From the IMG/VR virus record IMGVR_UViG_3300043104_000334: a stretch of DNA of 64,000 nucleotides. One strand, 5' to 3'. The first letter of the stretch is position 1; each line of letters begins with the position of its first letter. The notes below the pieces were generated by a model. It did no database searches. It saw only the letters and a list, made by a program, of their open reading frames with translations, and was not told where the DNA came from. A program made the position numbers and the translations under genes. This document shows positions 1 through 64,000 of this stretch, piece after piece. The stretch comes from a virus (lineage: Duplodnaviria; Caudoviricetes).

Positions 1-590
1 GTAATTCTACAGTTTCCTTTTGTATTAACAATAATGATTTCATCACTGTTTGTTGTATTAACAGAACCGAATACAAAGTTAAATGGTGCGATAATCTCAA
101 TGTAATTATATTCACCAAAATCCCATAACTCACCTAATTTAACACCTTCGGTCTCTGTACTCATATTATTTGCCTTAGCTATGCCACTCGTTGACAAGCC
201 AACGTTAGCTAAGTTAAATATAGGATTATCACTGTCACTGTTATCCATTGTTAAATTAGTACTTGTAGCACCGGCGAATGTAGATGTTACAAATAAAGTT
301 TTTGCATTATATTTGTTTGTATTATTATTTCCATATAATGTAGCTAACGTGAACGTGGAGTTTGTTGTCTTAGACATTTCAGTCTGCGGACAGGTTAACT
401 TTCTACTACCCGTCATTTGTTGATAGAGCTCAACAGATGAATCTGTCTTACTCTTAACGTTACTTGGAGTGTAATAAGTTCCAACCGCGAAATCCTTTTC
501 ATCCTGCGTTGTATCATAGTTGTTAATAACGACAACAGCAATTATAATAAACCCTATAAACGCCAATGTCATAGCTACTCTATCTTTCAT
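1..590 (-). CDS. Partial hypothetical exported/membrane-anchored protein (runs off the window)
   Basis: ATG at 590 with GGAGG RBS at about 596-600; reads MKDRVAMTLAFIGFIIIAVVVINN... (N-terminal TM, then Thr/Asn/Ser-rich). Not in the ORF track because it is truncated. Confidence 0.75.
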   Translation of the reverse strand, partial: MKDRVAMTLAFIGFIIIAVVVINNYDTTQDEKDFAVGTYYTPSNVKSKTDSSVELYQQMTGSRKLTCPQTEMSKTTNSTFTLATLYGNNNTNKYNAKTLFVTSTFAGATSTNLTMDNSDSDNPIFNLANVGLSTSGIAKANNMSTETEGVKLGELWDFGEYNYIEIIAPFNFVFGSVNTTNSDEIIIVNTKGNCRI

Positions 591-631
591 TATAGCCTCC
601 TTGATTACATATCTTAATAGTTATGCAATCA

Positions 632-651
632 TACGGAGATTTCTCTCCGTA
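632..651 (-). terminator. Hairpin after FtsK gene (8-bp stem, GAAA loop, no U-tract on the minus strand)
   Basis: Minus strand TACGGAGA-GAAA-TCTCCGTA immediately after the stop at 655. Confidence 0.6.
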
Positions 652-654
652 CTT

Positions 655-3600
655 TTAAAGAACAATCTCAGAACTTGCAATCTCACGTTCGCATTCTGAA
701 ATGTAAAGCTTATCGCGTGTAATGTTTCCATCATGCCATGAGAATATCCATCCTGTCTTCATACCCTCATAGTTCTTTCCAGCTTGTCTTGTACCAATAC
801 ACTTATCGGAATCGTCAACAGAACACTTAGCTGCAATTCTGTAGTTACAAGCATTAACAGTAGCAAGTGCCATACCTGTCATTGTTGTTCCCATGAATAT
901 AATATGAATATTGTACTCACCACATGTCTGTAATAAGTTGTTCATATTCGTTCTAACGTTCATGTCTGTTTCAATTCCGAATCCCGGACCTTTATCCCAA
1001 CCAAGTAAGAATATCCAAATAGGTGTGTCTTTTCTACCTTTCTCTTTCCTTGCATTGTACAAACCTTGAATCCATTTTACAATTTCTTTAGGCTTGTTAT
1101 TCTCGTATAGCAGGTGTCCATGTTTATCAGGAAATGTTATGCAATTGTCAATATCACATAAGTATCCTAAATCATGAACCTGCGTATTGATAATAACAGT
1201 ACCGGGCACTTTATTATTCTTGATATTACACATAAGCTCTTGGAAGAACATTACAAAGTCTGTATAATCAGATAATACTGACATAATATTTGTATTATTC
1301 TTCGCAGTAAGAATTATGTTATCAGGTGCTTTATTCTGTGAGTAAGCCATCCGGTTTCCTAAGAAGAATACACCAGAATCAGGTAATGATTTCTTTACTG
1401 CAGGACTGTTATATGTATCTACTAACTGTTGAATAGGATGCTTTGTTACCTCTTCATAAGTGATAACATCTTTCTTAGGCATTTTTCTTTCTTCTGCCAG
1501 TAGAGCCATTCTTTTGATATGTTCTCGTAAATCATCATCAGGTATGAATGGAGTTCGATACCTAGGCTGGTCTTCATTAGAAATACCAGTAGCCTTAACA
1601 ATAAGAAATCCAAATTTCTCCTTAATATCAGAAGCTTTAGATGTACCAAGGATTTCCTGTGATACTTCTTTATCACAACGCAAAGCAAACCTTAAGGTGA
1701 ACTGCTGTAAGATATCAGCACTCAAAGTTTTCTTCATTGACTGCGACGTAAAGAAGATATGTACATTAGCTGCACGACCTACCTTGGCAATCTGAGTAAT
1801 ATCAGCCTTAATTAAATCAAGATTCTTCGGGTCAGCCTTTTCAAAGATAACCTGAAACTCATCTGCTATAAACAGTATGCGTGGCCAGCAGTTTTCTGTA
1901 TACCTTTCATCCCCTGTATCAGAAGCTTTCTGTCTCCAGAACTTGTTCCAACCAACAGCACCCTTTTGGTTAGGTGATGTTTTACCGTCAGGACAATAAG
2001 CCAACTCACTAACATATAGACTCGGGTCTTTAAGCACATCGTATCTGTGGTCAGCCTCAACACGTAACGCATGAAACAGCGAAGTAGCATAATCACCATC
2101 AGATGTACATAGACATGCCTTAATATGTGGTAACATATATGGACACTCATCATTAGGCAGGTAAAACTTAAACTCTGTTCCCTTAAAGTCAGTAAGCCAT
2201 AACTCAAGCTCTCTAGGCGAGTATTCCTTAGTTGCAGTGGCGATCAAGTGGTTAAGGAATACTGACTTACCAGCACCAGTACCACCAACACCAATAACAT
2301 GTACGTTACCAGTGTTACCAACCTCGAACGGTTTATATGATGTAGGATCACCATTAAGATAACCAGGATACAACTCCATATAATTATCTGCATTACCAGT
2401 CCACATCTTTGAGTCAGGAATTACATTATCAATGAATTCTTTCCAAGGCAATCCCTTCGGCTTAGATTTGGAAATAGCATCTGCGTAGTTTGAAGCAACC
2501 TTAGCACACCAATCATCATTTACGATATCAGTAATAGGATGCTCAATACTTTCAAATGGTCTCCTGAACACAAATGCTGTCTTAGACTGCATATAATCAG
2601 AAATCATCCAAATGAAGACACCACCAGTTGCTGAGTATTCAAAGAAGCTCTGAAGTTTTTCATCTTCCTCAATTGTCTTAGGCTGCGATAAAACCATAAG
2701 AATACGATACTCAATAGGAGTCATCCCTACTTCTTCACACTTCTTATTATACTCGTCTATTGTCTTACCTGACATAGCCTTGAAGTTCTCTTGTACGTAG
2801 GTAACAAGGTCATCAATAATTTTGGTAAGATCGTCGTTATAGAACTCCAAGTATTGATTTATTTCATTCTTGAATAAAGGCATTATGCTACGACCAAAGT
2901 CATTTGGGTCGTAAACAATTACCTTTACTTTACCCGGCGATACATTGCTGACTGCATTAACATACATAGCCTGTAAGAACTTGTTCATCTTAGATGTGTC
3001 GACACTAGGACGAATAACAATATTCCTTTGACCAACGTCAACAGTCTCTTCTATGCAATCATCATGAATACCGAGAGTGAATGTTCCGTTAAATGTAAGA
3101 TGCTGGGAGAATCTATCACCAAGAAACTTGTACTCACTCTTAAGTTTTTCATACTGTTTATTCATGTATGCAATCTCGGCTATGACATCAGCTTTGATTC
3201 TCTCTATCTTATTATTGAATGTTGTCTCAAGTTCTTTAAGATGTTTCTGATTCTCTGGTAATGCATCAGACCACGCTGCAATTACCTTTGAATTACGAGT
3301 ATCAGGATTACTCTCTTCGAACTTTGCTTCAACTTCATCATACATAGACTCAAACTTACTGAATCTCTCATCTTTATCAAGCATCTCATCAGTAAGCTCT
3401 TCTGGCAATAGTTGTGATTCGTCTAGAGCAGTGAATCCCATATTCTCTGGTTTTACGTTAAACGTAATAGCCAGCAAGATACTATAGAACTTTACTCTAT
3501 TTATATTCTGAATCTGGTTCACACCTAACGCGGTAAAGAATGCTATACTTACAAAATCAAGTATAGGTGTGAAACATGCAATAAGCATACCTATCAGAAC

Positions 3601-6130: not shown

Positions 6131-6598
6131 TTAATCCTCCGCTGTGACTCCCTTATCCTGCAAAAGCACTCCCTGTAAATGGTCATACTCATGCATAAAG
6201 ATTCTTGCTTTCTTATATGGGAGCCACTCAACTGTTTTAATATTATGCTCATCTACATACGATACTTTTATTAAAAGTGGTCTCTTAACAATGTATCGTT
6301 TGTCTCCCTCAGATAAACATCCCTCGTTTGACTTCTTTGACCCAAATGCAAATAATACTTTTGGGTTGTATACAACCTTTGGGTCTTTGCCTTTTGTGTA
6401 CCTTAACAAGACTGCACAATAAGGCATACCACACTGTACAGCAGATATGCCTTGAGCAGCTCCTTTTAAATCCCTGAATGTCGTTAACAAAACAATCCTA
6501 AGAGTTGAGACAAAATGATTGTCACGCATATCAACTTCTTTCGACACCTGATGCAGCGTTTTTACATCTGTCTCTACAGGACTCCTTTTTACTTTCAC
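6131..6598 (-). CDS. def: Peptide deformylase
   Basis: All three PDF motifs: GISAVQCG, EGCLS, HEYDHLQG. Confidence 0.93.
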   Translation of the reverse strand: MKVKRSPVETDVKTLHQVSKEVDMRDNHFVSTLRIVLLTTFRDLKGAAQGISAVQCGMPYCAVLLRYTKGKDPKVVYNPKVLFAFGSKKSNEGCLSEGDKRYIVKRPLLIKVSYVDEHNIKTVEWLPYKKARIFMHEYDHLQGVLLQDKGVTAED

Positions 6599-9667: not shown

Positions 9668-9681
9668 CGTTTTAACCCTCC

Positions 9682-11712: not shown

Positions 11713-12519
11713 TTATTTTTCTTCAGCATTAAGTTTATTCATTACCTCAACGAGATAACGAACAAATTGCTCTGATGTTACAATAGGTATACCACCACGT
11801 TTTGCTGCGTCTACCTTTCCTCTTGTTGTAGAGCCAGGCTCCCTGATAAGAAAGTCAACACCAGACTGTCTTTTTGTTTTCTGATGAAGAATTATAATTC
11901 TTCCTTTGCATGCCATATTAAGAGTATCAATAAAATCTTCTTTCGTCCTGTATCCATTTGGTGTTCCTGTAATCATTATAGTGAATACCGCTTCAGGACC
12001 TTTTGTAACTATTTCTTTAGGCCGCTTAACAAACTGAACATACTTAGCATTATCATAAATTTCATCTTTATTCTTATCAAGAACAGGACGCCACTTACCA
12101 TCGTACTTTTCATATAGTTCATCAAGTGTATAAATTCCGAGTGTCTTTGTTATGTTACCCCACTCGGAATCAACTCCCTCGAAACAGTGTATTCTCAAAA
12201 ACTGTTCCATTGTAACAAGTGGTTTGAAATTCCACAACTCGAACAACTGGAATGGAGATGTAGCATGTATAAGTGTAGCATCGTTTAAACACCCTGCAAA
12301 TCCAATTCCTTTTACGCCCAATAACTTCCTTGCAAAATCAGCCTTAGCTGCAACAAACCCATAACAATGCTCATTAGAACATTTTCTATTTGTGCACCTA
12401 AGGTCCTCATTATAATAGTTCATCATAGGTGAACCACAATGAGGACACTTAGATGGCAACTTGCCTTTTAACCAATCCGGTATATATGGGTCTTTATCGT
12501 GTTCAACCCAAATAGACAT
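11713..12519 (-). CDS. NAD-dependent DNA ligase, C-terminal half (Zn finger-HhH-BRCT)
   Basis: PSKCPHCGS...RKCSNEHC Zn finger; LGVKGIG HhH; BRCT TIMITG...VDFLI...KVDAAKRGGIPIVTSEQF; likely start MSIW at 12519. Confidence 0.85.
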   Translation of the reverse strand: MSIWVEHDKDPYIPDWLKGKLPSKCPHCGSPMMNYYNEDLRCTNRKCSNEHCYGFVAAKADFARKLLGVKGIGFAGCLNDATLIHATSPFQLFELWNFKPLVTMEQFLRIHCFEGVDSEWGNITKTLGIYTLDELYEKYDGKWRPVLDKNKDEIYDNAKYVQFVKRPKEIVTKGPEAVFTIMITGTPNGYRTKEDFIDTLNMACKGRIIILHQKTKRQSGVDFLIREPGSTTRGKVDAAKRGGIPIVTSEQFVRYLVEVMNKLNAEEK

Positions 12520-12535
12520 ACGTAATCTCCTTATC

Positions 12536-13585
12536 TTAGATAATTTCCAAGCTAGCACTCACAATGTAGATGTCATCCATGTCCTCAGTGGATTCAAAGT
12601 AATCATCACCAATAAGGTGCGTCCAGTAGGTATATGTTACAAGCACGTTACCACTATCATTAAGCTGATTCCATTCATCCGGCGTAACACTCACAAAGAA
12701 CCAATCCGCATGCTCATTGTCATCCAGATAAACCTTGATGAAGAGCTGGTTACCATAGACATCAATCTTCTCATAATCGAGGTTCTTCGTTTCTGTATAG
12801 GATGCACCAATCATTGTCCAATCAGTCATATCTGTACGCTCCGGGAGCGTAAGCCATGTCTGCGCTACATAGTGCTTGTATTCATCAGATGCTGTGTCAT
12901 ACAATGGTGCAATAGCCTCCTGAATCCAAGCGTCACGTTCCGCTTCAGCCTGAGTAATTAAATCAGCCGCCGGAACCTGCTGAGTTTGATAGGATTCAAT
13001 TTCATCACCAGTATAACCCGCAGCTCTTAACTGTGTAATCTCATCGGGTGTGTATAAGAATGTCTCTTCACCCACTGGATCGAGCCACTCGAGTCCCTCT
13101 GTACTTGTATCAACATCTGTACTAGAATCTCCACTTGGCTTAAGTAAGATATACCCGACGACAAGCACCGCTACAACAATAGCAGCAATACCAAATACAA
13201 GCGGTTTACTAAGCTGGAATCCACCGGAACCACCTGTCTGCGTCGTGTTGATGATAGTATCATTTGCAGTACCTTGCACAGTTTGCGTTTGCTGAGTCTG
13301 CTGTACCGGCTGAGCGGTAGAAGACGGCTGATAACTTTCAGTCTGCTGTAATACTACCTGCTGAGTGCTATCAGTAGCATTCGCTCTTGCACTCATCATC
13401 CTTTCACGGAGTTGCTCCTGCTGACTCTTATGAGATTGTTGAACTGGCTGACTCTGAATTGTCTGCTGTGTACTTGCAGCCCGCTGCGTATCTTCATTGT
13501 CTGGAACTTTATCACTACGCATCTGCTTCATAAGTTCACGCATCTTTTCTGCGTCTTCAGTAGTCATACCATTAAATCTATCCAT
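12536..13585 (-). CDS. Bitopic membrane protein (Gln-rich N-terminus, acidic outer domain)
   Basis: TM LVFGIAAIVVAVLVVGYILL. Confidence 0.75.
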   Translation of the reverse strand: MDRFNGMTTEDAEKMRELMKQMRSDKVPDNEDTQRAASTQQTIQSQPVQQSHKSQQEQLRERMMSARANATDSTQQVVLQQTESYQPSSTAQPVQQTQQTQTVQGTANDTIINTTQTGGSGGFQLSKPLVFGIAAIVVAVLVVGYILLKPSGDSSTDVDTSTEGLEWLDPVGEETFLYTPDEITQLRAAGYTGDEIESYQTQQVPAADLITQAEAERDAWIQEAIAPLYDTASDEYKHYVAQTWLTLPERTDMTDWTMIGASYTETKNLDYEKIDVYGNQLFIKVYLDDNEHADWFFVSVTPDEWNQLNDSGNVLVTYTYWTHLIGDDYFESTEDMDDIYIVSASLEII

Positions 13586-28413: not shown

Positions 28414-28669
28414 CTGTGTCCTCCTCACGTGTCATTGTATATCCGTCCACTTCCTCAGGCACCAACATAGCACCTTTTCGATTGTATCTCTGAAGCATAA
28501 GCATAGGCTCATTTGTATATACGTTGTAATATATCAATATGAGCGAATCGTCACCGGCCTCAAGTTCATCCCCAAAGATTTGAACGACATGTTTTTCCAT
28601 GTTAGATTTAAACACATAGTCACTGTTCATAATGTCGTCCCAATTCATTTTTAATAACTTATTCTGCAT
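28343..28669 (-). CDS. Hypothetical protein directly after beta'
   Basis: 108 aa, GGAGG RBS. Confidence 0.65.
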   Translation of the reverse strand: MQNKLLKMNWDDIMNSDYVFKSNMEKHVVQIFGDELEAGDDSLILIYYNVYTNEPMLMLQRYNRKGAMLVPEEVDGYTMTREEDTDEDGSDYTEITYVLRSLQEALQG

Positions 28670-47081: not shown

Positions 47082-47082
47082 A

Positions 47083-47544: not shown

Positions 47545-47547
47545 ATC

Positions 47548-48069: not shown

Positions 48070-48071
48070 AA

Positions 48072-48488: not shown

Positions 48489-48499
48489 CTCCCTCGATG

Positions 48500-48970
48500 C
48501 TACATATAGTTGAACTTAATACCAGTGATAATACCACCGGCGTACCCATCTGCACTTACCGTATTATTAAGGTCCTCGACAAGATTTGCTCTAAATTTCT
48601 TTGTAGAACCGAGCACACCGGACAGATACGAATAAGTTACTTGACGCGTACCAGAGCTATCAGTTACATAAAATTTACCAGTACTTTTATCATTGAAATA
48701 TATAGTTGTGTTTATTTGGATAACTACATCCAAATCGTATCTGTAATATACCATTGCACTAAGTACATCTGTACTATACAGATTTGTTGTGCAATCATAC
48801 ATAGAATATTCTCTGTAATAATTTATTCTGTCAGACGTAGCCTGCTGTGTCGCAGAATAAGATGACAGAATTGTTGTACTACGCAGCAATAAAACTACTG
48901 CAGAAAGTATAGCTGCAGATATCATCATATCTACACCCATTGTAATATAATCATAAATTAGGTCAGTCAT
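48500..48970 (-). CDS. Pilin-like protein
   Basis: Hydrophobic N-terminus; EYSMYDCTTNLYSTDV ~ EFATYDNTKVSGTQV of the putative major pilin. Confidence 0.6.
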   Translation of the reverse strand: MTDLIYDYITMGVDMMISAAILSAVVLLLRSTTILSSYSATQQATSDRINYYREYSMYDCTTNLYSTDVLSAMVYYRYDLDVVIQINTTIYFNDKSTGKFYVTDSSGTRQVTYSYLSGVLGSTKKFRANLVEDLNNTVSADGYAGGIITGIKFNYM

Positions 48971-49028
48971 TTTCTTCGCTCTCCTTACAAATTATAGGTT
49001 GATATAAGTTATTAAAATAAGTTATATC

Positions 49029-49048
49029 AGAGGGACCGAAGTCCCTCT
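49029..49048 (-). terminator. Hairpin after the putative major pilin (cUUCGg loop)
   Basis: Minus strand AGAGGGAC-TTCG-GTCCCTCT. Confidence 0.7.
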
Positions 49049-49080
49049 AAGCTGATTTGACTGATCAACGCAGTTACAGA

Positions 49081-49776
49081 CTAGCTAAGCTGTCTGAAGA
49101 AGATACCGATGATAGAACCGGTCGGGTCCTTGATAAGTACAGAGCTGAATCTACCGGAGCTGAGCAGGTAAGCTGCATTACCAAGTTCCGTTGTTCCAAT
49201 AATATCGTATGAAGAATCTACGAGACCATTGGTGTTGTGCAGGTAACTTGTGTAGTTTGCTGAGCCAGCCTCACGATACAGTGATTCTTTGGCTGTAGTC
49301 TGTGTTCCATCAACCCATTTAACCAGATATGCGGTCTTAGCCTGTGACGTAATGAGAACGCCTTCAAGCGCATTGGAACCATTGGTTGCTGTTGCTGAAT
49401 TACCAGATTTTAAAGCAACAAGACTGTTCGTTGTTGATGATGACGCACCATCTTTGGTGAGCAGTGCACCATAGTTTACTGCAAGGTTTGTGGCACCGGT
49501 TGTCTGCTGAAGAGATGTTGTCTGAATTACGATAGCAACATCACGACCCTGGAACAATGACAACGCGGTAGCCACCTGTGTACCTGAAACCTTGGTATTG
49601 TCATAGGTAGCAAACTCCTGAGTTGATACACTATCAATACCGGACTGCAACGTAGTCTGACCGTTGCTTAACAACGAGTTACTCATAACCATAAGGTTAA
49701 GTACTGTTGCAACAAGCGCAGCTACAAGGATAACTGTAATACCAACACGCATTGTTGCGGAAACATCTTCTGACAT
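49081..49776 (-). CDS. Putative major pilin-like protein
   Basis: N-terminal hydrophobic helix; strong AAGGAGG RBS; own intergenic upstream region and downstream hairpin. Confidence 0.6.
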   Translation of the reverse strand: MSEDVSATMRVGITVILVAALVATVLNLMVMSNSLLSNGQTTLQSGIDSVSTQEFATYDNTKVSGTQVATALSLFQGRDVAIVIQTTSLQQTTGATNLAVNYGALLTKDGASSSTTNSLVALKSGNSATATNGSNALEGVLITSQAKTAYLVKWVDGTQTTAKESLYREAGSANYTSYLHNTNGLVDSSYDIIGTTELGNAAYLLSSGRFSSVLIKDPTGSIIGIFFRQLS

Positions 49777-50755: not shown

Positions 50756-52756
50756 TTAACCAAAGTTACTTAAATTTGATAATGTGTCAACCATCTCAGA
50801 TACACCAAGAATAAGGACAGGCCCAATAAAGCATCCAATCAAAGCCAATGCTGCAGGAGCAACCGCAATAAGCTTTGCTGAATTCTTCCTTTGTTCAAGT
50901 TCCTCAGTTCTCAACATTTCTGTAATAGTCAACGTCTGTGCCTTGTCCAGTGCCATATCAGAAAATGCATCATGCAGACTAAGAGTATAAACACTACTCT
51001 TAAGTTTTCTCAATAGACGCTTAAAATCATTTACTGGACTTGAAGCTTCAAGTCTGTCCAAGGCAAGCATAGGGTTCGCTATATAAGAGTAGTGACACCT
51101 ACGAATAGCAGCCTTATGAACAGCAGCTTGTTTTTCCAACCAGCATAATGCTTTGTACACGTCCATCTTAGTTTCTGACAATACAATCATCATGGTCTGT
51201 AACTGCGACACATCATTTGTTGCCTCATACATAACAAGCTTCTTACGCATACTAAGTGTAATCTCTGGTATATGCCAACACAGTATTGCTACTACGTAAC
51301 ACACAAGCCACCACCACCAATAATAGTGTGCACCATGGTAGCCTTCATACTTTGTACGTAAGCGTTTCATCTGTTCTGAGGCATCTGAATCAGAAATACC
51401 AGTAATACGCCCTTGGACGTAACTTTGTAGGGTTTCGTCGTCATAGGCTTCATACTCTTCCTGATCCAGCTTCATAAAATCATCATCCATCATTACTATC
51501 TGGTTATGCTGTGTTTCGGTAACTGTCTGTGGAATAAAACTCAGGGAATTGTAATTATTGTAGAAGTTATCCCGCACAGTAATAGTACCAAACAGTAATA
51601 TAACAAAAGCCGCAAGAAACCCTGCAACAGCGTAAATCGGCTTTGCAGTGTAAATATATCTTATGTCTTTTGCGGACAATGAATCATTAAGCATGTTCTG
51701 TAGCTTTACTACAGTTTTATATTTCTTAGGCGAGATTGCATCCACAAAGTCACGAACTTTCTTGTTCTTACTAAGTTCGTCAATGGCTTTTGACTTATCA
51801 ATCTGATTAACGACACTAGGCCTACACGCCGTCGAAATATAATGGTAAGAGAACATGGTTGTAAGCATTATCGCTACATGCATAAACAATCCATAGTACC
51901 CTTTCAATAGGGAAGCTGTACCCGGTATCTGATTTAATAGATACCACTCAAATACAGGCATAATAATAAGACCTGCAAGCGATAACATCTGCAGGGAGTT
52001 AAATGCAATCTTCTGTTTTGTAAGACGCCGAATCTCAGCATCACACTCCTGTCTCAGAGTAGTCATATCCTCTGAGAATGAGTCAGCACCATTTTCATGT
52101 TTAACAGCACCATTCTCATTTACAATGTAACAGGTATTCGCGAATGTTTTGATAATCGCAACCGGATAAGAATGCTGAAACTGTTCAAGTCGTTCGGCAC
52201 CATTTGTATCTGTTAAGATACGATAAATGTTATTCATAGGCGTCTCGAGGTATTTACTCTTTTCAGCATACAAAACCGCTAATGGAATGTTATCTGTCTC
52301 AAGATACTTTTCGCGTACACTCGAGATTGTCATGGAACACTCTTCCATTAGCTTGATATAGATTTTGTCATTTTCTTTCTCTATTACCGACTGATAATAA
52401 ACGTATCCCATAAATCCCATAAGGATTGATACCAAAGCATCACGCATGATTACCATAGATACGACCGGTAGGATTATCATGATAGATACATTCTTCTCAA
52501 ATATCTTTACAGACTCTTCTTTTACCGTGTCAGAATCGTAACACGATAGAGATGCATACATCTCAACAATTCGTCTGAACGGACCACGAATGATTATGTT
52601 GTTATAATAAACAGCAAATCGATTATGCAGTTTCCGTTTTTGCTTAAGCGCGAACTCTTTGTTTTCCTTGGCCTTTGCTTTTGCAGTGAAGTATATAAAG
52701 GCTATAATAGTAGCAACGAGTATGCCTAAGTTCATAAGAATCATTTGCTTAGTCAT
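50756..52756 (-). CDS. Fused TadB/TadC-like pilus platform membrane protein
   Basis: 666 aa with two T2SSF-like helical/TM halves; associated with CpaF and pilins. Confidence 0.7.
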   Translation of the reverse strand: MTKQMILMNLGILVATIIAFIYFTAKAKAKENKEFALKQKRKLHNRFAVYYNNIIIRGPFRRIVEMYASLSCYDSDTVKEESVKIFEKNVSIMIILPVVSMVIMRDALVSILMGFMGYVYYQSVIEKENDKIYIKLMEECSMTISSVREKYLETDNIPLAVLYAEKSKYLETPMNNIYRILTDTNGAERLEQFQHSYPVAIIKTFANTCYIVNENGAVKHENGADSFSEDMTTLRQECDAEIRRLTKQKIAFNSLQMLSLAGLIIMPVFEWYLLNQIPGTASLLKGYYGLFMHVAIMLTTMFSYHYISTACRPSVVNQIDKSKAIDELSKNKKVRDFVDAISPKKYKTVVKLQNMLNDSLSAKDIRYIYTAKPIYAVAGFLAAFVILLFGTITVRDNFYNNYNSLSFIPQTVTETQHNQIVMMDDDFMKLDQEEYEAYDDETLQSYVQGRITGISDSDASEQMKRLRTKYEGYHGAHYYWWWWLVCYVVAILCWHIPEITLSMRKKLVMYEATNDVSQLQTMMIVLSETKMDVYKALCWLEKQAAVHKAAIRRCHYSYIANPMLALDRLEASSPVNDFKRLLRKLKSSVYTLSLHDAFSDMALDKAQTLTITEMLRTEELEQRKNSAKLIAVAPAALALIGCFIGPVLILGVSEMVDTLSNLSNFG

Positions 52757-55619: not shown

Positions 55620-56046
55620 TTATCTTCCCTGCTCTCTTAACATGTCAGCCATTTTACTGCTTCGGTTTCCTGCAGTGAACCTTTGCCATATCTTTCTGCA
55701 ATATCACTAATTCTCTCTTGAATGGTCATATCCTGACCGGCAGGACCCGTAGTGATGTCTGCATAATTCAAAAGCCGCAGCATTGAAGAGTCATATTCTG
55801 TCTGCACAATACTGTGGTAACGAATCTCATTCCAGAACTTGTATCCTTGCTCTTTTAATAAGAATCCACCTTTCTCTGCATGTTCTTCCGGTCTCTTGGA
55901 AAACTCATAACCAATATCATGTAACATACCAAGTATGAACGCTTCATCCGGATTAACGGGATATACATCGTGTTCTGTTTCTGCCATCTTTTTCATTTTG
56001 TTGCTACTGACAAGCTGTGTCTTAATCTATCTTCTGAAATCCTCAT
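55620..56046 (-). pseudogene. HD-domain protein with two apparent -1 frameshifts
   Basis: MRISEDRLRHSLSVA (from 56046) is out of frame with MKKMAE...GMLHDIGY...LNYAD; adding one A near 56000 and one near 55653 restores ...VANKMKKMAE... and ...AVKMADMLREQGR*. Confidence 0.7.
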
Positions 56047-56129
56047 TTGCCTGTCTCTCCATTAATTAAGTAATTAACCTAAAGTCTAAAATAGGCATTC
56101 TATCAGCTTAATGTTTTGAACTGATAAAG

Positions 56130-56203
56130 TGGACCATATAGGACTTGAACCTATGACCAACCGGTTATGAGCCGGCCGCTCTCACCAACTGAGCTAATGG
56201 TCC
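56130..56203 (-). tRNA. tRNA with CAU anticodon, most likely tRNA-Ile2 (lysidine); CCA not encoded
   Basis: GGACCATTAGCTCAGTTGGTGAGAGCGGCCGGCT-CAT-AACCGGTTGGTCATAGGTTCAAGTCCTATATGGTCCA folds as a cloverleaf and resembles Firmicutes Ile2 (GGACC..TAGCTCAG...GGCTCATAACCG). Confidence 0.9.
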
Positions 56204-57230: not shown

Positions 57231-59090
57231 TTATGCTGTTAGCACGTGAGCCCAATTCTCACGATACCAAGCAATGAAATTCTTTCTGTCTTCACCTTTA
57301 AGCTTGGAGCAGATTCTTCTGAGCGCCTCCTCAGTGTAACCATCTTTCGCTTCGTATGTCATTGTTTCTGGATTAAACTCAATAATATGCCGTGACGTGA
57401 ATCTCACACGGTCTGTTGTACGCGTATAATATTCACGTTGTAAACTAGCCAGCTGGTCGATTGCATCAGCAACATTTTCTGACCGTTTAAGCTCCGGATA
57501 AGGTTCAATCTCGTTAAGCTTAACAATCTCAGAAATAAATGCGATGACACGTTCGCCCTTAACGAAGTCAAGATGTACATTGTTCTTGATTGCATCAAGA
57601 ACAGTTGACATTGCAACATCATGGTTCTCGTACTCACCACAAGCAACAAGCGAGTTTGTAAGACCGTTGATAAGGTCAGCATCTGTCTTTGCATGATGTG
57701 AGAAGATTGTAAATGCAGATGCAATAAGACAGAACTGAATCATACGAGCAGCAACGATGTCTTCTGCAACCTCACCAACCATTGAGAGATAACCATCAGT
57801 CTTCTTCAACAAGTCCTGTAGATTTGCAGCTGATACATAATCCGTGGGCTTAACAGTAAGAACGTTCTTCCATGGATAAAGCTCACGGATAGCCAACTCA
57901 AACGACATCTCCAAGATACGAATGTTAACCATAGCAACGTCCGCCATTGCAGCTTTCATCATTGAGGTCTTACCAGTATTCTGCTGTCCTGTAAATGCTG
58001 TTGTTTGCTCGCCACGCATTAAGTAGTATATAAGTGTGCTCGGTAGCTCCCAATTCTTGATACGTGGTTTGTTAAGTAATTTTTCCTTAACGTAGAGTCC
58101 ACTAGAGAACTTACGAACAAAACAAGCCCAGCATTCACCAGCTGGCGGTCGAATAGCAGTCACACGAGCACCATCATAAGCATCATTTACTTTGTACGGA
58201 GATTTCTCCGTCATTGGTGCAGTCGTACCCCATGCCACGAGCTGGTTGATAATTCGTTTCATTTCTTCCTCTGTACCAAAGCTAAGGAACGAGAAATGAA
58301 TCCACGTAGCTTTAAGCTGTACCCATACAGAGTTTACCGTTCTGTAAGGAACATTGTATGTGCCATCAATCACGTATCGAATAGAACCTGATGTACCAAA
58401 GTTGAAACCATCAATGTCAAGACCACGAAGTGTATCCGCAACACCAAATCCAAATCTATTCTGATAAACAAGAATTGTAATGATGTCAAGCATTTCGTTA
58501 TACTCAAGCTGATGTCCATCAAGTTCCTTTTCGAGAACTTCACTAAGAAAAGTCGAGTCAAATAAGCAACGTTTGTTAATTTCACCCGTTAACTCATTTT
58601 TGATTTCACGCTCTGTAGCGAGGTCATACTTATCACACAAATAAGCCATTGTATCAGTCTTATGCTGTTTCTTCACCATGTAAATAAGAACTTCCCACTG
58701 AATGTTAGGTTCAATGTAGTAGAGGTCATTGAAATCAACAACCTCCATACAATCTTGAACCTCAGGAAGTTCACGCTCAATAATCTGACGAATACACGAT
58801 AAGACCATATTCTTTGCTCTTTCAACACCGTACACACATTCATCAAGAGCTTTGGCAATTGTCCTCTTCTTATAAGACATAGCCTTGAAATGTGTATCTG
58901 TTGTGAGCATTAAGTCATCATCACGAACCAATTCAGCCAGCTCCGTAGAGACAAGTTCACCTAATGATTCTATAGTAATCTTGCTCTTATAGTCAGCTGT
59001 AGGTCTTTCATTCTTTCTTGAGCGATACATAAGAAAGGTTATACCGGCTAAGACAGCAATGGTAAATATAGATAAAACTATTTGTACCAT
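57231..59090 (-). CDS. cpaF: Tad/Flp pilus assembly ATPase CpaF/TadA (Firmicutes long form with N-terminal TM)
   Basis: DGARVTAIRPP, FVRKF, Walker A GQQNTGKTS, LEMSFEL Asp box, Walker B MVGEV, His box FSHHAKT. Confidence 0.88.
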   Translation of the reverse strand: MVQIVLSIFTIAVLAGITFLMYRSRKNERPTADYKSKITIESLGELVSTELAELVRDDDLMLTTDTHFKAMSYKKRTIAKALDECVYGVERAKNMVLSCIRQIIERELPEVQDCMEVVDFNDLYYIEPNIQWEVLIYMVKKQHKTDTMAYLCDKYDLATEREIKNELTGEINKRCLFDSTFLSEVLEKELDGHQLEYNEMLDIITILVYQNRFGFGVADTLRGLDIDGFNFGTSGSIRYVIDGTYNVPYRTVNSVWVQLKATWIHFSFLSFGTEEEMKRIINQLVAWGTTAPMTEKSPYKVNDAYDGARVTAIRPPAGECWACFVRKFSSGLYVKEKLLNKPRIKNWELPSTLIYYLMRGEQTTAFTGQQNTGKTSMMKAAMADVAMVNIRILEMSFELAIRELYPWKNVLTVKPTDYVSAANLQDLLKKTDGYLSMVGEVAEDIVAARMIQFCLIASAFTIFSHHAKTDADLINGLTNSLVACGEYENHDVAMSTVLDAIKNNVHLDFVKGERVIAFISEIVKLNEIEPYPELKRSENVADAIDQLASLQREYYTRTTDRVRFTSRHIIEFNPETMTYEAKDGYTEEALRRICSKLKGEDRKNFIAWYRENWAHVLTA

Positions 59091-59872
59091 CTATCAATAC
59101 CTCTTATAATCTTTCTATTTGGAGCATCAAACAGGAACTGCATGATCTCCAACATTGGTACACGGAAGTTAACGAGTTCATAATCACCAACAATGATGTT
59201 GTAAGCAGCCTTGTCAAGCTCACCATTGTAAGCCAGCTTTGCAAGCGCAGAACTACGCGGGAACTTGTAAAGGTTCTGCACAGAGACTTTCATTTGATCT
59301 GCCAGTCTCTTATCGGATGATACAGTTGCATCATGCTTTGACACAACAATAGCCCGGTTATACTTGAATGCCGGATTCTTCAACTTGCTTATTGTTTCAT
59401 TGAGCTTCCTTATTCCACGTGGCGATTGCTCCATAAGAAGCAAACAGCAATCACAGATACCGAGTACCCTCTCATTAAGCTCTGAGTTTATATCACCCGA
59501 AATCTCAATAAGAGTCAGGTCGACCGGAACCTTTTCGATTGCATCAATAAGGAAGTCCTCTTTCTCATTTTGTGCCATAGTTGAATTGAGTATGTCATAT
59601 ATAAAGACATGCTCATCCCCCGCCTGAACTCCATAGTTAAGGAGCTCTTTTGCATCATCATTGGAATTCTCGACCATAGCCTTGAGCATATAAGGGCTAT
59701 CAAGAACATCATTGGTCGCATAATTCGTAATCAACTCAATAATGTCCTTTGCATCACCGGTTGAGAAAACTGCGACATCTCTGCCCTGCGAACGTGAGTA
59801 TACACCACCAAGCGTTTCAATGAACGTTGACTTACCGCACGTCGGTACCACTGATATCACTGCTACTTTCAT
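59078..59872 (-). CDS. CpaE/TadZ-like ParA/MinD-family ATPase
   Basis: VAVISVVPTCGKST deviant Walker A; directly upstream of cpaF. Confidence 0.7.
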   Translation of the reverse strand: MKVAVISVVPTCGKSTFIETLGGVYSRSQGRDVAVFSTGDAKDIIELITNYATNDVLDSPYMLKAMVENSNDDAKELLNYGVQAGDEHVFIYDILNSTMAQNEKEDFLIDAIEKVPVDLTLIEISGDINSELNERVLGICDCCLLLMEQSPRGIRKLNETISKLKNPAFKYNRAIVVSKHDATVSSDKRLADQMKVSVQNLYKFPRSSALAKLAYNGELDKAAYNIIVGDYELVNFRVPMLEIMQFLFDAPNRKIIRGIDRWYK

Positions 59873-60575
59873 CTTTCACTCGTGCTCCTTTCGTAAACAT
59901 TCTTTCATCGATTGATAGGTAAGCACCAAAGAGTTTGTAAAGCTCCTTGATAAGCCCATCATCCGGTACCGGCATAATATGCCGAGATTCCATGCTCTCG
60001 ATGATCTCGAAAGACGGGAACTTGCACCATTTTGTCTTCTTATCATTCAACACTTCCTGAAGCACATCTTCATCCGTCTTCTCGACATGCCACTTGTTGA
60101 ATTCTCTGTCAGAAGCTTCCTGCTTCTCTTCTTCCTCTTCAGCGGGAGCATCTTTCGCTTTGGTTGACTTCTTGTTAGATTTCTCCTTAACCATCGGAGC
60201 AGGCGAACCAAACTTGATAATATTGGTCTTTTCATCCTGAATGATGTAGAGCAAGTCCTGCACATAGGACTCAGATATCCTGTTAGTAAGAATACATAAC
60301 AACATATCATAATCCGTAGCACCAACGTTATCATAAATAACGAAGTCATACTTAAGTGCGTCATAGCCGTCTGATGCTTTCATAGCATCAAGATCAGCTT
60401 CCGGATTGATAATAATCCGTACATTTCTGAATCCACCCTCAAGATCATTCTCAATCAGCCGAGAGAAATATTTGTTTGATGTATACACAGCTACCGTACC
60501 GTAATTGTAGAGAACCTTAATGAGAGGATAGATAATGATACGGGAATCTGTTTCTGATTTAATAGCAATCTGCAT
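59832..60575 (-). CDS. Tad-locus hypothetical protein (degenerate P-loop-like)
   Basis: Between cpaB and cpaE; YDFVIYD strand. Confidence 0.6.
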   Translation of the reverse strand: MQIAIKSETDSRIIIYPLIKVLYNYGTVAVYTSNKYFSRLIENDLEGGFRNVRIIINPEADLDAMKASDGYDALKYDFVIYDNVGATDYDMLLCILTNRISESYVQDLLYIIQDEKTNIIKFGSPAPMVKEKSNKKSTKAKDAPAEEEEEKQEASDREFNKWHVEKTDEDVLQEVLNDKKTKWCKFPSFEIIESMESRHIMPVPDDGLIKELYKLFGAYLSIDERMFTKGARVKDESSSDISGTDVR

Positions 60576-61612
60576 TATTGAATCGCCTCCAAGTCTTCAA
60601 CAGACTCTTCTAATGAATCTACAGCTTCTCCAGTTGCTGCATCCAAAGAAGTATCTGTGTCATATGTTGATGTGTCAGTAGTGCTACTTGTAGTTCCACT
60701 CTCTCCTACTACATTACCGTCTTCGTCAGTATGTTCTGCAACCCAAGCGGACTGCGCGGCAAGCTGTCCAGACAGCTGTGTTCTGATTCCTGAAATGAAG
60801 CTTGACGCAACACTGCTGTTATTACTGTCAGAATATAAGAGAAGAACCTGATCGATATGGCTGCGGAATGTTTCATTAATACATCTTGTTACATCCGTAA
60901 TGTTAGGGTTGAACCGAACATAATCTTCCATATCACTCTGAATAGGATAAAATGCAATAGTATCACTATTACCCGGCTCAAGATACTTTGTAACATACGC
61001 AACAGTAGTGGAAGGGTACGTAGCCAAATCCTGCAGTAAGGACATGAGAATTACATTCTCTTCCTCTGATACAAACAATGTAATTGTTGTACTGTTATAT
61101 AGCCGCATAATCTTTTTATGGCTTAAAACAATAAGTTCTTCACCATCAGGCAACATATAACGAATATCAATATAGTCGCCTACAACAGTACTTACCGGCA
61201 TGGATTCAAGCGTAAGCTCGAATGGGAACTTTGCAGTACCATCTTCATCATCTTCATCCATAAGCATGTCGAGCGATAGAATTGTTCCCGGCTGGATATC
61301 GACCTTGTAACTTTTGCCAACAAGCTGCGTAATATCGGTTACAGATGAGTCAGCAAGAGTAGAAGCAGGAATTGACACTGCCACCAAATCACCCTCAAGA
61401 ATCTCATTTCCGGAGTAAACCTTTTTGGTTACCTCATACACATCAACCATCGCACCGATTGCGTTAAGCTGAGCCTGCACCTGAGCATTCTGTGCCGCAA
61501 GCTGCTCATTCGTTGAAATCTGATTTTTATTCTGCTTATAGAAGTATATTGTTCCGGTAGCACCGAGTCCAATAACCAAGATAAACAAAATGATAATAAT
61601 CACTTTTTTCAT
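60575..61612 (-). CDS. SAF-domain CpaB/RcpC-like pilus assembly protein
   Basis: TM, then SAF (VYSGNEILEGDL...LVGKSYKVDIQPGTIL), then VGDYIDIR...IVLSHKKI. Confidence 0.8.
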   Translation of the reverse strand: MKKVIIIILFILVIGLGATGTIYFYKQNKNQISTNEQLAAQNAQVQAQLNAIGAMVDVYEVTKKVYSGNEILEGDLVAVSIPASTLADSSVTDITQLVGKSYKVDIQPGTILSLDMLMDEDDEDGTAKFPFELTLESMPVSTVVGDYIDIRYMLPDGEELIVLSHKKIMRLYNSTTITLFVSEEENVILMSLLQDLATYPSTTVAYVTKYLEPGNSDTIAFYPIQSDMEDYVRFNPNITDVTRCINETFRSHIDQVLLLYSDSNNSSVASSFISGIRTQLSGQLAAQSAWVAEHTDEDGNVVGESGTTSSTTDTSTYDTDTSLDAATGEAVDSLEESVEDLEAIQ

Positions 61613-61874: not shown

Positions 61875-62462
61875 TTAAAGATACACAGTTCTTGTCTGGT
61901 CGTCCTCATTTTCGTCCTTTGAATGTTCATCTTTCCATTCATCAACAAGCATATCCATGTGTAACCAATCATGGAACTGTCCGTTATGAAAACCGTGACC
62001 ACGGTATCTTCCTGATATGGTAAAGCCACATTTTTCATAGCAATGCACAGCAGCTTTGTTTGTTTCGAGAACATCAAGATGAACACTGTGAACACCAAGC
62101 TCGTCAAAGCAGTATTTGCACATAAGCTCGATTACTTCTTTACCAAGACCAAGATGTCTGTAGACCGACTCACCTATGTTTATGGATAACCACGCAGCAA
62201 AATCTTTTGCTCTATGATCGATATGACAATACCCAATCATAGTGTCATTATCCTTAAACACGATACCCATACGCAGAACAGAATCATCATGTACCCAGCC
62301 AGGCATGCGTGTAATGTCAACTACCTTGTTGTTTTTCTCAAGGTTTACCACGGTAGCTTCTTCAGACATCCACTCAACATACTTCATAATGGCTTCATCA
62401 TCATCACGAAGAATTGAGAGATAAACCCTGTCACCGTTTATTCTACAAATATTCTTATCCAT
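61875..62462 (-). CDS. RimJ/RimL-family GNAT acetyltransferase
   Basis: INGDRVYLS, IGE..YRHLGLGKE, NKAAVHCYEKCGF; likely start MDKN at 62462. Confidence 0.85.
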   Translation of the reverse strand: MDKNICRINGDRVYLSILRDDDEAIMKYVEWMSEEATVVNLEKNNKVVDITRMPGWVHDDSVLRMGIVFKDNDTMIGYCHIDHRAKDFAAWLSINIGESVYRHLGLGKEVIELMCKYCFDELGVHSVHLDVLETNKAAVHCYEKCGFTISGRYRGHGFHNGQFHDWLHMDMLVDEWKDEHSKDENEDDQTRTVYL

Positions 62463-62463
62463 G

Positions 62464-62982
62464 TTATTTCGCTCCCCATCTGAAGTATTCCTTACCACCG
62501 ATAATGACCTGCTTTGAATCTGTATATTTATGAAAATAAGGAATATCAGCTTCAGTAGGGATATCCGTGAATAAAGTGTAGTCTGAGTATCTACCTGCAA
62601 CCTCGTTTATGAGTTTGTATGTATTGCTCGACATATGACCATCAGCCGGGCCAACAGCACACATAAACAATACATTTCTCACTTCCCTGTCAATAACAGG
62701 TTTAAGGAATGCGATGATACAGTCAAAGTAATGATGATACTCAGCCGGATGCTCTTTCTCAAACTTTGCAAGGTCAACCATAACAAGATAATCATTTTTA
62801 AGCTTGTAACTGTGGCCCTGCTCAATTATGAGTCTAGTATCCTCAGTGAACGCTGATATATACATGCTAGCAGCATTTTCTGTGTTAAACATGCTTGTGT
62901 ATAATCTGCTAGTGCTGTAGTACTCAGCAATACTCTGCATCGCCTTACTAACATCTGACTCACTCATCTGTTTAATTCCCAT
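62464..62982 (-). CDS. Hypothetical protein (possible degenerate GNAT fold)
   Basis: 172 aa adjacent to the GNAT gene; fold call is weak. Confidence 0.6.
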   Translation of the reverse strand: MGIKQMSESDVSKAMQSIAEYYSTSRLYTSMFNTENAASMYISAFTEDTRLIIEQGHSYKLKNDYLVMVDLAKFEKEHPAEYHHYFDCIIAFLKPVIDREVRNVLFMCAVGPADGHMSSNTYKLINEVAGRYSDYTLFTDIPTEADIPYFHKYTDSKQVIIGGKEYFRWGAK

Positions 62983-63874
62983 TGTTAGCCCTCCTCACTA
63001 CTAGTACGATTATCTCATCCTCCGTACGATTATAAGTACACTGGTTGGAAAACCGTAACCTGTTACTGTATATCCAATCCAATGGAATTACAGTAGTCTT
63101 TACCTTTAATATACCCATTCCACCCTCTTCAATGCTATTAGCAATTGTATCAAGGTTATGCTCAAGAGTGTCACTGTTATCTATGACAAACTCTTTTACA
63201 TTATCAGGAATAGGCGTTCTCACTGGCACGAGCATTGTATCATACTCATACTTTGCTGGTGCTGTTGCCTTAAGTTCATACACAATCTTTACACCACTCG
63301 TCTTAAAGATAAATTTGTAAAGATAAGTATAAATGCACACAGCATCTGTAACGTCATCCTTACGACCTGACCACCTGTTATTTAGGTCATCAAACCAATC
63401 CTTAGAACCTTTATGGTGTGTTTGTTTACGGTACTCTTCCGGTAGGATATGAGACTTCCATTCCCAGTTATTTATTCGCTTTGGTCTAACACCAAATGAA
63501 TCCTCAAATAGGAATATGAAATTATCGAAGATAGCCGTTATCTTATAACGACTCTCATGATAGTTTAATCCTCCGGATTTACCATTCTTACTGGTTTCAC
63601 TTTTCTTTGTGATGATGTCTTCAATACCCACCATCAAAATCTCGGCACCCTGAAATAGGGAACGAAGCTGTTTACGTGCAACAGCACATAAGTCATACAC
63701 GTCTGTCTCTGAGCCTTTACCAGATATCTCATAATCATCTAAGACATTACCATTGACATCTCCGACCACTATAGCAGAATTTGACTTTGACGAATCGATT
63801 GCAATGAGAATCTTCTTCCCACCATAAGATGGCATATATTCGTCAACTTCATATCCATTCTTAAAAATATGCAT
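62972..63874 (-). CDS. RuvC-like Holliday junction resolvase with C-terminal extension
   Basis: ILIAIDSSKSNSAIVV (first Asp), VGIED (Glu), NWEWKSHI, DDVTDAVCI. Confidence 0.75.
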   Translation of the reverse strand: MHIFKNGYEVDEYMPSYGGKKILIAIDSSKSNSAIVVGDVNGNVLDDYEISGKGSETDVYDLCAVARKQLRSLFQGAEILMVGIEDIITKKSETSKNGKSGGLNYHESRYKITAIFDNFIFLFEDSFGVRPKRINNWEWKSHILPEEYRKQTHHKGSKDWFDDLNNRWSGRKDDVTDAVCIYTYLYKFIFKTSGVKIVYELKATAPAKYEYDTMLVPVRTPIPDNVKEFVIDNSDTLEHNLDTIANSIEEGGMGILKVKTTVIPLDWIYSNRLRFSNQCTYNRTEDEIIVLVVRRANNGN

Positions 63875-63895
63875 ATAGGCACCTCATACTTAATT

Positions 63896-64000
63896 TTATT
63901 TCTTTAATTCTGAACGAACTCTCATAAGGATGTCTCCTAGGAATTCATCAGTAATCTCAGAATTACCAGTACTCAAAAGCTTTTTAGCTATACATTCATT
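63896..64000 (-). CDS. 3' end of a probable NADAR/YbiA-like protein (partial)
   Basis: ...KKLLSTGNSEITDEFLGDILMRVRSELKK* resembles the NADAR C-terminus LL.TG...LG..LM.VR..L. Confidence 0.5.
   Translation of the reverse strand, partial: NECIAKKLLSTGNSEITDEFLGDILMRVRSELKK

Follow-up and report, generated by a model that had tools for sequence, protein, structure and literature searches.

The stretch of DNA analyzed here (64,000 nucleotides; the window) makes up one third of an extrachromosomal replicon that is circular, approximately 193 kb in size and separate from the cell chromosome. The replicon is probably a member of a large uncatalogued lineage of giant conjugative-type plasmids that bear a type IV secretion system (T4SS) and a Tad-like module and that have a transcription apparatus of their own. 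The genes for a VirB4-family ATPase, for a CpaF-like secretion ATPase and for the β′ subunit of a divergent RNA polymerase (RNAP) are core genes of this family. The combination of VirB4, the Tad-like module, giant surface proteins and the divergent RNAP is present in no catalogued plasmid or phage that was searched. The virus-like, private information-processing core is best read as acquired or retained by the element. An earlier note, made from the sequence of the window, had proposed exactly such a virus-like informational core joined to a plasmid-like contact module. Both parts were borne out, and the core is larger than was noticed then: the window additionally encodes a subunit resembling the N-terminal domain (NTD) of RNAP α, and a DnaB-like helicase, primase parts, RNase H, a second PolA domain and a transfer-messenger RNA (tmRNA) are encoded outside the window on the same element.

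The window corresponds to positions 64,001–128,000 of the JGI contig Ga0376452_0000007 (contig B, 193,223 bp), with 0 mismatches over the 14 kb compared. Two near-identical contigs come from other samples, i.e., Ga0484756_000004 (193,287 bp), which begins at B 56,385, and Ga0484754_000004 (193,322 bp), which begins at B 46,289. Both start points fall within contig B as well as within a Logan contig. Because three contigs of approximately 193.2 kb, from three samples, have different start points, the map is circular, with a size of approximately 193.1–193.2 kb; the junction across the ends of contig B is deduced from the sizes of the other two contigs and was not seen directly. The β′ gene is also found on a contig of 200,315 bp from the same strain, approximately 7.1 kb longer than the three permuted contigs, and the extra 7 kb or so could be an inserted small element or an assembly wrap-around. 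The extent examined is B 34.8–176.8 kb (142 kb), with B 1–34.8 and 176.8–193.1 kb (51 kb) outside it. By Rfam, no rRNA was found in the window and 108 kb of its flanks, tRNA-Met and tmRNA being the only such genes detected, and no ribosomal-protein gene was matched by Pfam in the 142 kb. None of the look-ups with family genes landed on a contig larger than 1 Mb. With three permuted contigs and no rRNA or ribosomal-protein match, circularity and ribosomal content, the two points that the earlier note had raised in this respect, both speak for a separate replicon.

The genes of the replicon are organized in one direction. After overlap filtering, the minus strand of the window holds 66 non-overlapping open reading frames (ORFs) of at least 50 aa, with a coding density of 98%, and the plus strand holds a single 50-aa ORF that is probably spurious. 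The GC content of the window is 0.37–0.41, with a GC skew of −0.11 to −0.19 in each 4-kb bin. This uniform skew and the 66 minus-strand ORFs agree with the earlier statement that all credible genes lie on one strand. Across the 142 kb, 165 of the 171 ORFs are on one strand, the gene calls of the collection are all co-directional, and the GC skew is +0.11 to +0.27 in 14 of 14 bins of 10 kb. Since a symmetric bidirectional replicon would switch the sign of its skew within 142 kb, as the megaplasmid pCY186 of Butyrivibrio proteoclasticus does, these data point to replication in one direction or to a transcription-driven skew.

The genes for the RNAP lie together in the order giant protein, small proteins, β, YdjM, α-like, β′, followed by one further gene, M23, another gene, ligase and Hsp70, and farther on PolA (Table 1). 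Relatives with as little as 33% identity in β′ retain this gene order, and 19 family members share the NADFDGD motif of β′ without change. For the gene that separates YdjM from β′, no sequence match was found, either in Pfam or with a profile against the PDB. Its AlphaFold model, made from an alignment of five syntenic homologs (pLDDT 63, pTM 0.66), has only bacterial RNAP complexes among its listed Foldseek matches in the PDB (ranks 1–50). The alignments are on chains that are usually α, with E values of approximately 1e-4 and TM values of 0.40–0.50. According to this model, the product folds like an RNAP α-NTD-like subunit. In the relative L171, the interval that holds the small acidic protein at the head of the operon contains two genes instead (135 and 139 aa), of which the 135-aa one matches Sigma70_r4. 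A Sigma70_r4 protein was seen in this relative only, and an omega subunit was not found. In a tree of β′ with 27 bacterial RpoC proteins, the family forms one clade with a support of 100. The clade is placed on a branch of 2.9 substitutions per site outside all 27 RpoC proteins and does not fall within Bacillota. In view of the unrooted tree and the long branch, no origin is claimed.

Three exact copies of the 13-mer ACATATATAATTG are located on the coding strand in intergenic regions, at 38611–38623 (before the RNAP operon), 21456–21468 and 11691–11703, and a near copy is present at 27381–27393. The motif can be written as (A)CATATATAATTG; in the 142 kb, its 11-mer form has five copies on the coding strand and 0 on the opposite strand. 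If two mismatches are allowed, ACATATATAATTG is found 8 times versus 5.9 times expected, which is not significant, and it is only to the exact, strand-specific, intergenic copies that the promoter-like motif owes its weight. The CATATATAATTG motif, which lies before operons, is a candidate promoter of the private polymerase.

Besides the RNAP, the window encodes a Tad-like module with a 619-aa secretion ATPase. A profile of this protein and 25 relatives has CpaF as its best three matches in the PDB (E 1.3e-23), which supports the Tad pilus call of the earlier note; archaeal FlaI follows (7e-13), and PilB, GspE and VirB11 are lower. T2SSE is matched by 16 of the 26 homologs, and the language-model neighbors of the protein (Atlas clusters) as well as its JGI annotation agree with CpaF. 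By tblastn against PLSDB, full-length homologs with 24–33% identity were found on 35 large plasmids of cultured Bacillota. Five proteins of the window are colinear with homologs on one of these, pTHECO01 of Thermobacillus composti, and three with homologs on pCY186. The gene of pTHECO01 at the position equivalent to that of the 264-aa P-loop protein is annotated as ParA. Homologs of the 666-aa polytopic protein directly follow the ATPase gene in pTHECO01 (E 3e-34) and in pCY186 (E 4e-22). The protein has no Pfam T2SSF match; the nearest named Atlas cluster is TadB (0.88), which is a lead only. The first and the last of the six pilin-like genes have colinear homologs in pTHECO01. No Flp or prepilin motif and no Pfam match were found for the six, and no A24 peptidase match in the window. 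In the window, the module is interrupted by the tRNA-Met gene, the HD gene and a few others, and ends with the 2455-aa secreted protein. This giant has no Pfam or PDB match, and relatives carry a giant gene (2015–2685 aa) at the same place.

The VirB4-family ATPase is encoded upstream of the window. It is matched by the NCBIfam families VirB4_plasma (1.6e-11), CD1110 (6.6e-9) and VirB4_CagE (5e-5), and by Pfam P-loop_TraG (PF19044) with 29.9 bits versus a cut-off of 25.8. A profile against PDB sequences gave no match. For the predicted model of the protein, TrwK/VirB4 and Thermoanaerobacter VirB4 make up the first 15 PDB matches, with an E value of 1e-14 and over the full length. Directly after VirB4 follow four wall hydrolases, i.e., two Phage_lysozyme2 proteins, an M15_4 peptidase and a C39-like peptidase. 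In Gram-positive conjugation systems, a VirB4 gene adjoining wall hydrolases forms the standard core. The contact module proposed earlier is plasmid-like in that its Tad-like genes are colinear with those of Bacillota megaplasmids and that a fold-supported VirB4 with wall hydrolases is encoded upstream. Within the window, the 1189-aa FtsK-like protein is a candidate coupling or translocation ATPase, to judge from its sequence. For the two small proteins downstream of its gene, no WXG100 Pfam match is on record.

Directly upstream of VirB4, an array of a dozen or so paralogs with a hexapeptide/YdcK β-solenoid, which also match bactofilin, is present (L179:721-7735, L182:5373-16987). The Logan assembly breaks at this array. 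Farther upstream lie the genes of a 1928-aa protein and of further large unknown proteins. Eleven proteins of several unrelated groups, β-solenoid/LbH paralogs among them, have a common N-terminal leader, M-x(2-4)-[DN]-x-LL-x-AA-[GS]-K. They are encoded at L182:5373-16987, L178:15724-16101, L188:16652-17206 and L193:20331-21149, each with a good ribosome-binding site, and none is encoded in the window. The shared LLxAA leader may be an export or targeting signal.

The element belongs to a wide family. Relatives of β′ with 33–77% identity are present in Logan, ENA, JGI and NCBI metagenome assemblies, and their longest contigs are mostly of approximately 150–335 kb. When matched by size, the same contigs recur in the lists of homologs, at least 16 for β′ and VirB4 and at least 12 for β′ and CpaF. 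Examples are contigs of 206,824, 215,491, 231,634, 246,331 and 226,039 bp, and the co-occurrence of the three genes reaches members with approximately 35% identity in β′. As β′, VirB4 and CpaF travel together, a chimeric assembly is ruled out, and the contact genes are core rather than cargo. In particular, the mis-assembly of the Tad block that the earlier note had considered is excluded by a dozen or more divergent members with the CpaF, VirB4 and β′ genes on one contig.

Current catalogues do not contain this family as far as they were searched. Two conserved family markers gave 0 matches in 2.9 million IMG/VR contigs, though several JGI metagenome contigs of the family exist. A tblastn search with β′ revealed no relative in INPHARED and PLSDB, only matches of approximately 25% identity (22–31%), which are read as ordinary RpoC-type genes, i.e., bacterial sequence filed there and a few distant phage β′ subunits. 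Patterns made from a single β′ protein found nothing in IMG/VR or in GTDB genomes; alignment patterns were swamped by ordinary rpoC, so that absence from GTDB is not shown. For VirB4, no relative beyond a 25% partial match was found in PLSDB, and none in 401 genomes sampled from a single family of Bacillota metagenome-assembled genomes (MAGs). Among the other genomes of the same scan, nothing resembling the window turned up. Finally, no plasmid-like or extrachromosomal element that has a multisubunit RNAP of its own was found described in full-text literature searches. The relatives of the CpaF-like ATPase and of the polytopic protein are mostly from Bacillota, one VirB4 homolog is labeled as coming from a Lachnospiraceae MAG, and the strong AGGAGG-type ribosome-binding sites fit Bacillota. 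The host is thereby weakly constrained to uncultured Bacillota, probably gut or rumen Clostridia. For the Clostridia named in the earlier note, the Lachnospiraceae label and the Bacillota-dominated relatives are weak evidence that points the same way.

If the element is a giant conjugative-type plasmid, it would transcribe its genes with its own polymerase from the recurrent intergenic CATATATAATTG and would use replisome parts of its own to replicate in one direction. Its spread, or its action on neighboring cells, would take place by contact. The Tad-like pilus and the adhesins would hold cells together, the hydrolases would open the cell wall, and DNA and/or proteins with the LLxAA leader would be moved by the VirB4 machine, for which the FtsK-like ATPase would serve as coupling motor. 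A more far-reaching version of this proposal, which is held only tentatively, is that of a distinct old lineage of giant replicons that are neither ordinary plasmids nor capsid-forming viruses. Such replicons would have their own deep-branching RNAP (β, β′, α and probably their own specificity factor and promoter) and would move between Bacillota cells via a VirB4/Tad contact apparatus. They might deliver LLxAA-tagged proteins, conceivably including the polymerase, into the recipient for host-independent expression of the incoming DNA.

A number of points weigh against the conjugative-plasmid reading. Cell-to-cell transfer is deduced from gene content. In the 142 kb, there is no Pfam match to a relaxase, and neither an oriT nor a VirD4, plasmid-type Rep or partition gene was recognised. 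Of the genes that the earlier note had named for inspection, VirB4 was found, 31 kb upstream of the window, and relaxase and ParAB-type genes were not recognised. The FtsK-like ATPase is closer to type VII secretion proteins (NCBIfam EccCa 1e-16, EssC 1.5e-9) than to known coupling proteins, though with 36–61 bits versus cut-offs of 347–778 for EccC/EssC. A private RNAP, tmRNA, tRNA, peptide deformylase (PDF), Hsp70, NADAR and PARG genes, a wealth of orphan genes and coding on one strand are typical of a huge phage, not of a plasmid. We know of no plasmid with a multisubunit RNAP, and to this extent the label plasmid is a stretch. Moreover, a circularly permuted linear genome, as in a permuted phage, would yield the same picture of contigs, and the 51 kb of the circle outside the examined span could house a virion module.

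These last points lead to the alternative of a huge phage or phage-plasmid, which is considered unlikely. The virion module would then be located outside the 142 kb, or Pfam and PHROGs would miss it owing to its divergence, and the VirB4, Tad-like and surface genes would be accessory, with roles, no more likely than this reading itself, in for instance lysogenic conversion, superinfection control or cell-to-cell spread. It would account for the virus-like core (own RNAP, two PolA, DnaB-like helicase, primase parts, ligase, RNase H, tRNA, tmRNA, PDF and Hsp70) and for four NADAR genes and a PARG gene, which are possible anti-defense genes. The unidirectional genes, mostly orphans, are as expected, the circular or permuted map fits headful packaging, and an N-terminal leader across unrelated proteins recalls capsid-targeting peptides. 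However, no capsid, portal, terminase, sheath, tube or baseplate protein was matched by Pfam in 142 of the 193 kb, in line with the earlier note, which had seen no capsid, terminase or tail gene. Twenty large unknown proteins gave no credible match to PHROGs, the three weak matches (E 0.003–0.009) being to two families of unknown function and, over a short stretch, to an Rz-like spanin. By two markers the family is absent from IMG/VR despite its existing JGI metagenome contigs. VirB4 and CpaF are, unlike accessory cargo, core genes and more conserved than β′.

Alternatively, the element could be a non-transmissible megaplasmid or chromid-like replicon, whose VirB4, Tad-like and EssC-like machines would serve protein export or the building of surface structures and not the transfer of its DNA. 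This is thought quite unlikely, as are the surface roles that it would entail (adhesion, aggregation or interbacterial antagonism). The lack of a recognised relaxase or VirD4 is consistent with it, as is the fact that MOB-suite types 35 of 35 related megaplasmids as non-mobilizable. The many leader-tagged proteins (β-solenoid paralogs) resemble secreted cargo, polymorphic hydrolase cassettes resemble toxin/immunity arrays, and the GGDEF and PilZ genes suggest control of surface behavior. On the other hand, VirB4 beside wall hydrolases is, by established knowledge, the standard conjugation core of Gram-positive bacteria, and conservation of gene order across so wide and diverse a family implies either horizontal spread or a long shared descent. 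Furthermore, plasmid pXO16 conjugates efficiently without any relaxase or oriT having been found (PMC9673590). An origin as a chromosome fragment of a strongly reduced or strongly divergent cell, or as a phage-plasmid assembly chimera, is highly improbable. Bacterial-type RNAP, PolA, DnaK-like, PDF, tRNA and tmRNA genes are indeed carried, but in three samples the circle closes at approximately 193 kb, and the 142 kb have neither rRNA (Rfam) nor a ribosomal-protein match (Pfam) and only one tRNA. The same gene combination occurs on a dozen or more independent divergent contigs, and the window is identical to an independent contig, so that this explanation is close to refuted.

The other features of the window are given together with the main ones in Table 1. 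The Pfam scan covered all ORFs of at least 100 aa and four smaller ones, and approximately 50 ORFs are without a Pfam match. For the ten largest unknown proteins, PHROGs yielded no credible match (two weak ones, E 0.003 and 0.009), and a megablast search with 25 kb gave no match to phages. No ribosomal, metabolic or virion-type gene was found by Pfam in the scanned ORFs, by PHROGs for the ten largest unknowns or by Rfam, which agrees with the absence of ribosomal, metabolic, capsid, terminase and tail genes reported before. The earlier identification of RNAP, PolA, ligase, Hsp70, PDF, M23 and FtsK genes is confirmed by Pfam, and that of the tRNA by ARAGORN and Rfam. By contrast, the SSB-, HolA- and RuvC-like calls are not supported by a Pfam match to these families in the scanned ORFs. 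Adhesin and lipoprotein calls are plausible from sequence features, namely the signal-peptide-like N-terminus of the 2455-aa protein and the LTGC and LMGC lipoboxes. No Pfam, NCBIfam or PDB sequence match was obtained for the 300-aa protein at the end of the window, and the zinc-finger protein is possibly the second half of a split ligase, as its sequence suggests, with the gene for the adenylation domain 13 kb away.

Table 1. Features of the window and the VirB4 gene upstream of it (positions in the window unless stated otherwise).
Feature	Position	Strand	Evidence
FtsK/SpoIIIE-family membrane ATPase, 1189 aa	655..4224	-	Pfam FtsK_SpoIIIE 3e-15; gene call on 16 contigs
PDF	6131..6598	-	Pfam 2e-21
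Second predicted lipoprotein	6613-7320		LMGC lipobox
281-aa protein with LigA-type C4 zinc finger	11713..12558	-	Pfam DNA_ligase_ZBD 0.0028, below cut-off, weak
Family A DNA polymerase (PolA), 1097 aa	13587..16880	-	Pfam DNA_pol_A 1e-46
Hsp70/DnaK-like ATPase, 445 aa	21658..22995	-	Pfam HSP70 3e-62
Predicted lipoprotein, 628 aa	23843..25729	-	LTGC lipobox; no family match
NAD-dependent DNA ligase adenylation-domain protein, 370 aa	25751..26863	-	Pfam DNA_ligase_aden 3e-8, 33.9 bits (cut-off 27)
M23 peptidase	27418..28428	-	Pfam 7.9e-22; position kept in relatives
RNAP β′, unsplit, 1241-1269 aa	28680..32489	-	Pfam Rpb1 domains 1, 2, 4, 5
RNAP α-NTD-like subunit, 281 aa, no C-terminal domain	32493..33338	-	Predicted fold
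YdjM-family membrane hydrolase within RNAP operon	33335..34018	-	Pfam YdjM 6e-25; position kept in L001, L171, L174
RNAP β, unsplit, 1345 aa	34080..38117	-	Pfam RNA_pol_Rpb2_6 7.8e-34 and Rpb2_7
Acidic 140-aa protein heading RNAP operon	38130..38552	-	No Pfam match
2455-aa secreted giant protein, candidate adhesin/surface protein	38709..46076	-	Signal-peptide-like N-terminus
Six genes, 138-333 aa, one N-terminal hydrophobic helix each, candidate pilin/pseudopilin set	46080..49776	-	
666-aa polytopic membrane protein, candidate TadB/C-like platform	50756..52756	-	Six predicted transmembrane segments
HD-domain protein	55637..55996	-	Pfam HD 9.7e-5
tRNA-Met (CAT)	56129..56203	-	ARAGORN; Rfam 73.3 bits
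CpaF/TadA-like secretion ATPase, N-terminal transmembrane helix, 619 aa	57231..59090	-	Profile against PDB
264-aa P-loop protein, ParA/TadZ-like position	59078..59872	-	N-terminal VPTCGKST P-loop; no Pfam match
247-aa module protein	59832..60575	-	Position conserved in megaplasmid modules; no family match
SAF-domain protein, N-terminal transmembrane helix, first gene of module, CpaB/RcpC position	60575..61612	-	Pfam SAF 5.9e-6
GNAT acetyltransferase, 195 aa as called	61875..62462	-	Pfam Acetyltransf_1/3/4, E ~1e-13
300-aa protein, probable RuvC-like candidate of the earlier note	62972..63874	-	Gene call conserved on 20 contigs
VirB4-family ATPase, 694 aa	L179:7828-9912, 31 kb upstream of window		NCBIfam, Pfam, fold

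Some further genes of the replicon were observed in the flanks. At B ~58–59 kb, just downstream of the window (L184:18874-20190), lies a second PolA-domain gene that is exonuclease-less (438 aa) and adjoins RNase H, an FtsK-like fragment and a NERD nuclease. A full-length tmRNA (Rfam RF00023, 98.9 bits, model positions 1–374) is located at L193:8050-8473 (+), at B ~48 kb and 16 kb downstream of where the window starts; it was not called by ARAGORN. From their sequences, the tmRNA, the tRNA-Met and the PDF may form a small translation-rescue kit of the element. Four NADAR-family genes and one PARG-like gene are scattered at L175:1330-2674 and 9647-9979, L178:3645-4070 and L193:15644-16213, and these we take to be possible reversers of ADP-ribosylation and possible anti-defense genes. 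Genes of the cyclic-di-GMP signaling type are present as well, i.e., GGDEF at L175:4780-5787, PilZ at L193:11962-12630 and the HD gene of the window (55637–55996).

To our knowledge, multisubunit RNAPs among mobile elements are known only in viruses, while plasmids rely on the enzyme of the host. A widespread family of circular elements of approximately 150–335 kb that pairs a complete-looking, bacterial-type core RNAP with the hallmark ATPase of conjugation would blur the divide between plasmids and viruses in bacteria, as Borgs and Inocles do in other hosts. The branch of β′ outside all sampled bacterial phyla bears on the origin of the polymerases of mobile elements, and the self-contained transcription system, together with its candidate promoter, can be tested in vitro. 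In addition, the family is common in public metagenomes yet invisible to current catalogues of phages and plasmids. The giant T4SS-bearing plasmid is known as a kind, and the element may prove to be a separate class. The earlier note had already raised such a new class, and what supports it is the absence of the element from the databases and the literature searched.

Jumbo phages with a multisubunit RNAP have genomes of approximately 200 kb or more, with many orphans, tRNAs and auxiliary translation genes. Their RNAPs have β and β′ split into several genes and have no α. The element differs from RNAPs of the phiKZ and AR9 type in that its β (1345 aa) and β′ (1269 aa) are unsplit, with the α-NTD-like subunit encoded in between. 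It further differs from jumbo phages in that virion genes were not found in the 142 kb, and in having VirB4 and a Tad core. Jumbo phages of the phiKZ and AR9/PBS1 type have β/β′-related RNAPs, which free them from host transcription (PMC7598289).

Inocles are large circular extrachromosomal elements of oral Streptococcus, of which the smallest group averages 245 kb. They were found by metagenomics, are absent from plasmid and phage catalogues and are rich in cell-wall genes (10.1101/2024.09.30.615745). Their GC content is 24–32%, the term RNA polymerase is absent from the main text of the report, RpoS is reported, and candidate replication origins and termini from GC skew are shown in the figures (10.1101/2024.09.30.615745). 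Like the element, Inocles are large, circular and uncatalogued elements of Bacillota. Identity with Inocles was rejected on the differences in GC content and gene content.

A functional analog is pXO16 of Bacillus thuringiensis sv. israelensis, which, like the element, is a giant and orphan-rich plasmid of Bacillota. It is conjugative and 350 kb in size, and its transfer locus was recognised only via two ATPases and a wall hydrolase, with no relaxase or oriT known; large aggregation proteins on the cell surface aid its transfer (PMC9673590). With the CpaF-like ATPase, no B. thuringiensis plasmid was matched in PLSDB, and no RNAP is reported for pXO16.

The closest known relatives of the element, as judged by sequence, are Bacillota megaplasmids that bear the module of SAF, ParA-like and TadA-like genes. 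These include pTHECO01 (149 kb), pCY186 and pCY360 of B. proteoclasticus, pBsph of Lysinibacillus sphaericus and pBpOF4-01 of Alkalihalophilus pseudofirmus. Like the element, they are circular, orphan-rich and in a similar size range (100–540 kb). Identity with the pCY186 type was rejected, as only three proteins are shared and a β′ gene is lacking: pCY186 has only 3 proteins in common with the 142 kb, two replichores and genes on both strands, and unlike the element neither pCY186 nor pTHECO01 has a β′ gene. What the element does have in common with pTHECO01 and pCY186 is the set of SAF, small protein, ParA-like, ~615-aa transmembrane ATPase, ~670-aa polytopic and pilin-like genes. The polytopic gene directly follows the ATPase in those megaplasmids, whereas other genes intervene in the window. 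Cell-wall hydrolases and T4SS-type genes are nearby in the Bacillota megaplasmids, as in the element. Farther downstream, pTHECO01 encodes SLH and giant surface proteins, including a 2391-aa Fn3 protein. In pTHECO01, an HD phosphohydrolase follows the module, and GGDEF and HD genes adjoin it, as they do in the element; by analogy, this hints at cyclic-di-GMP control of the Tad-like module.

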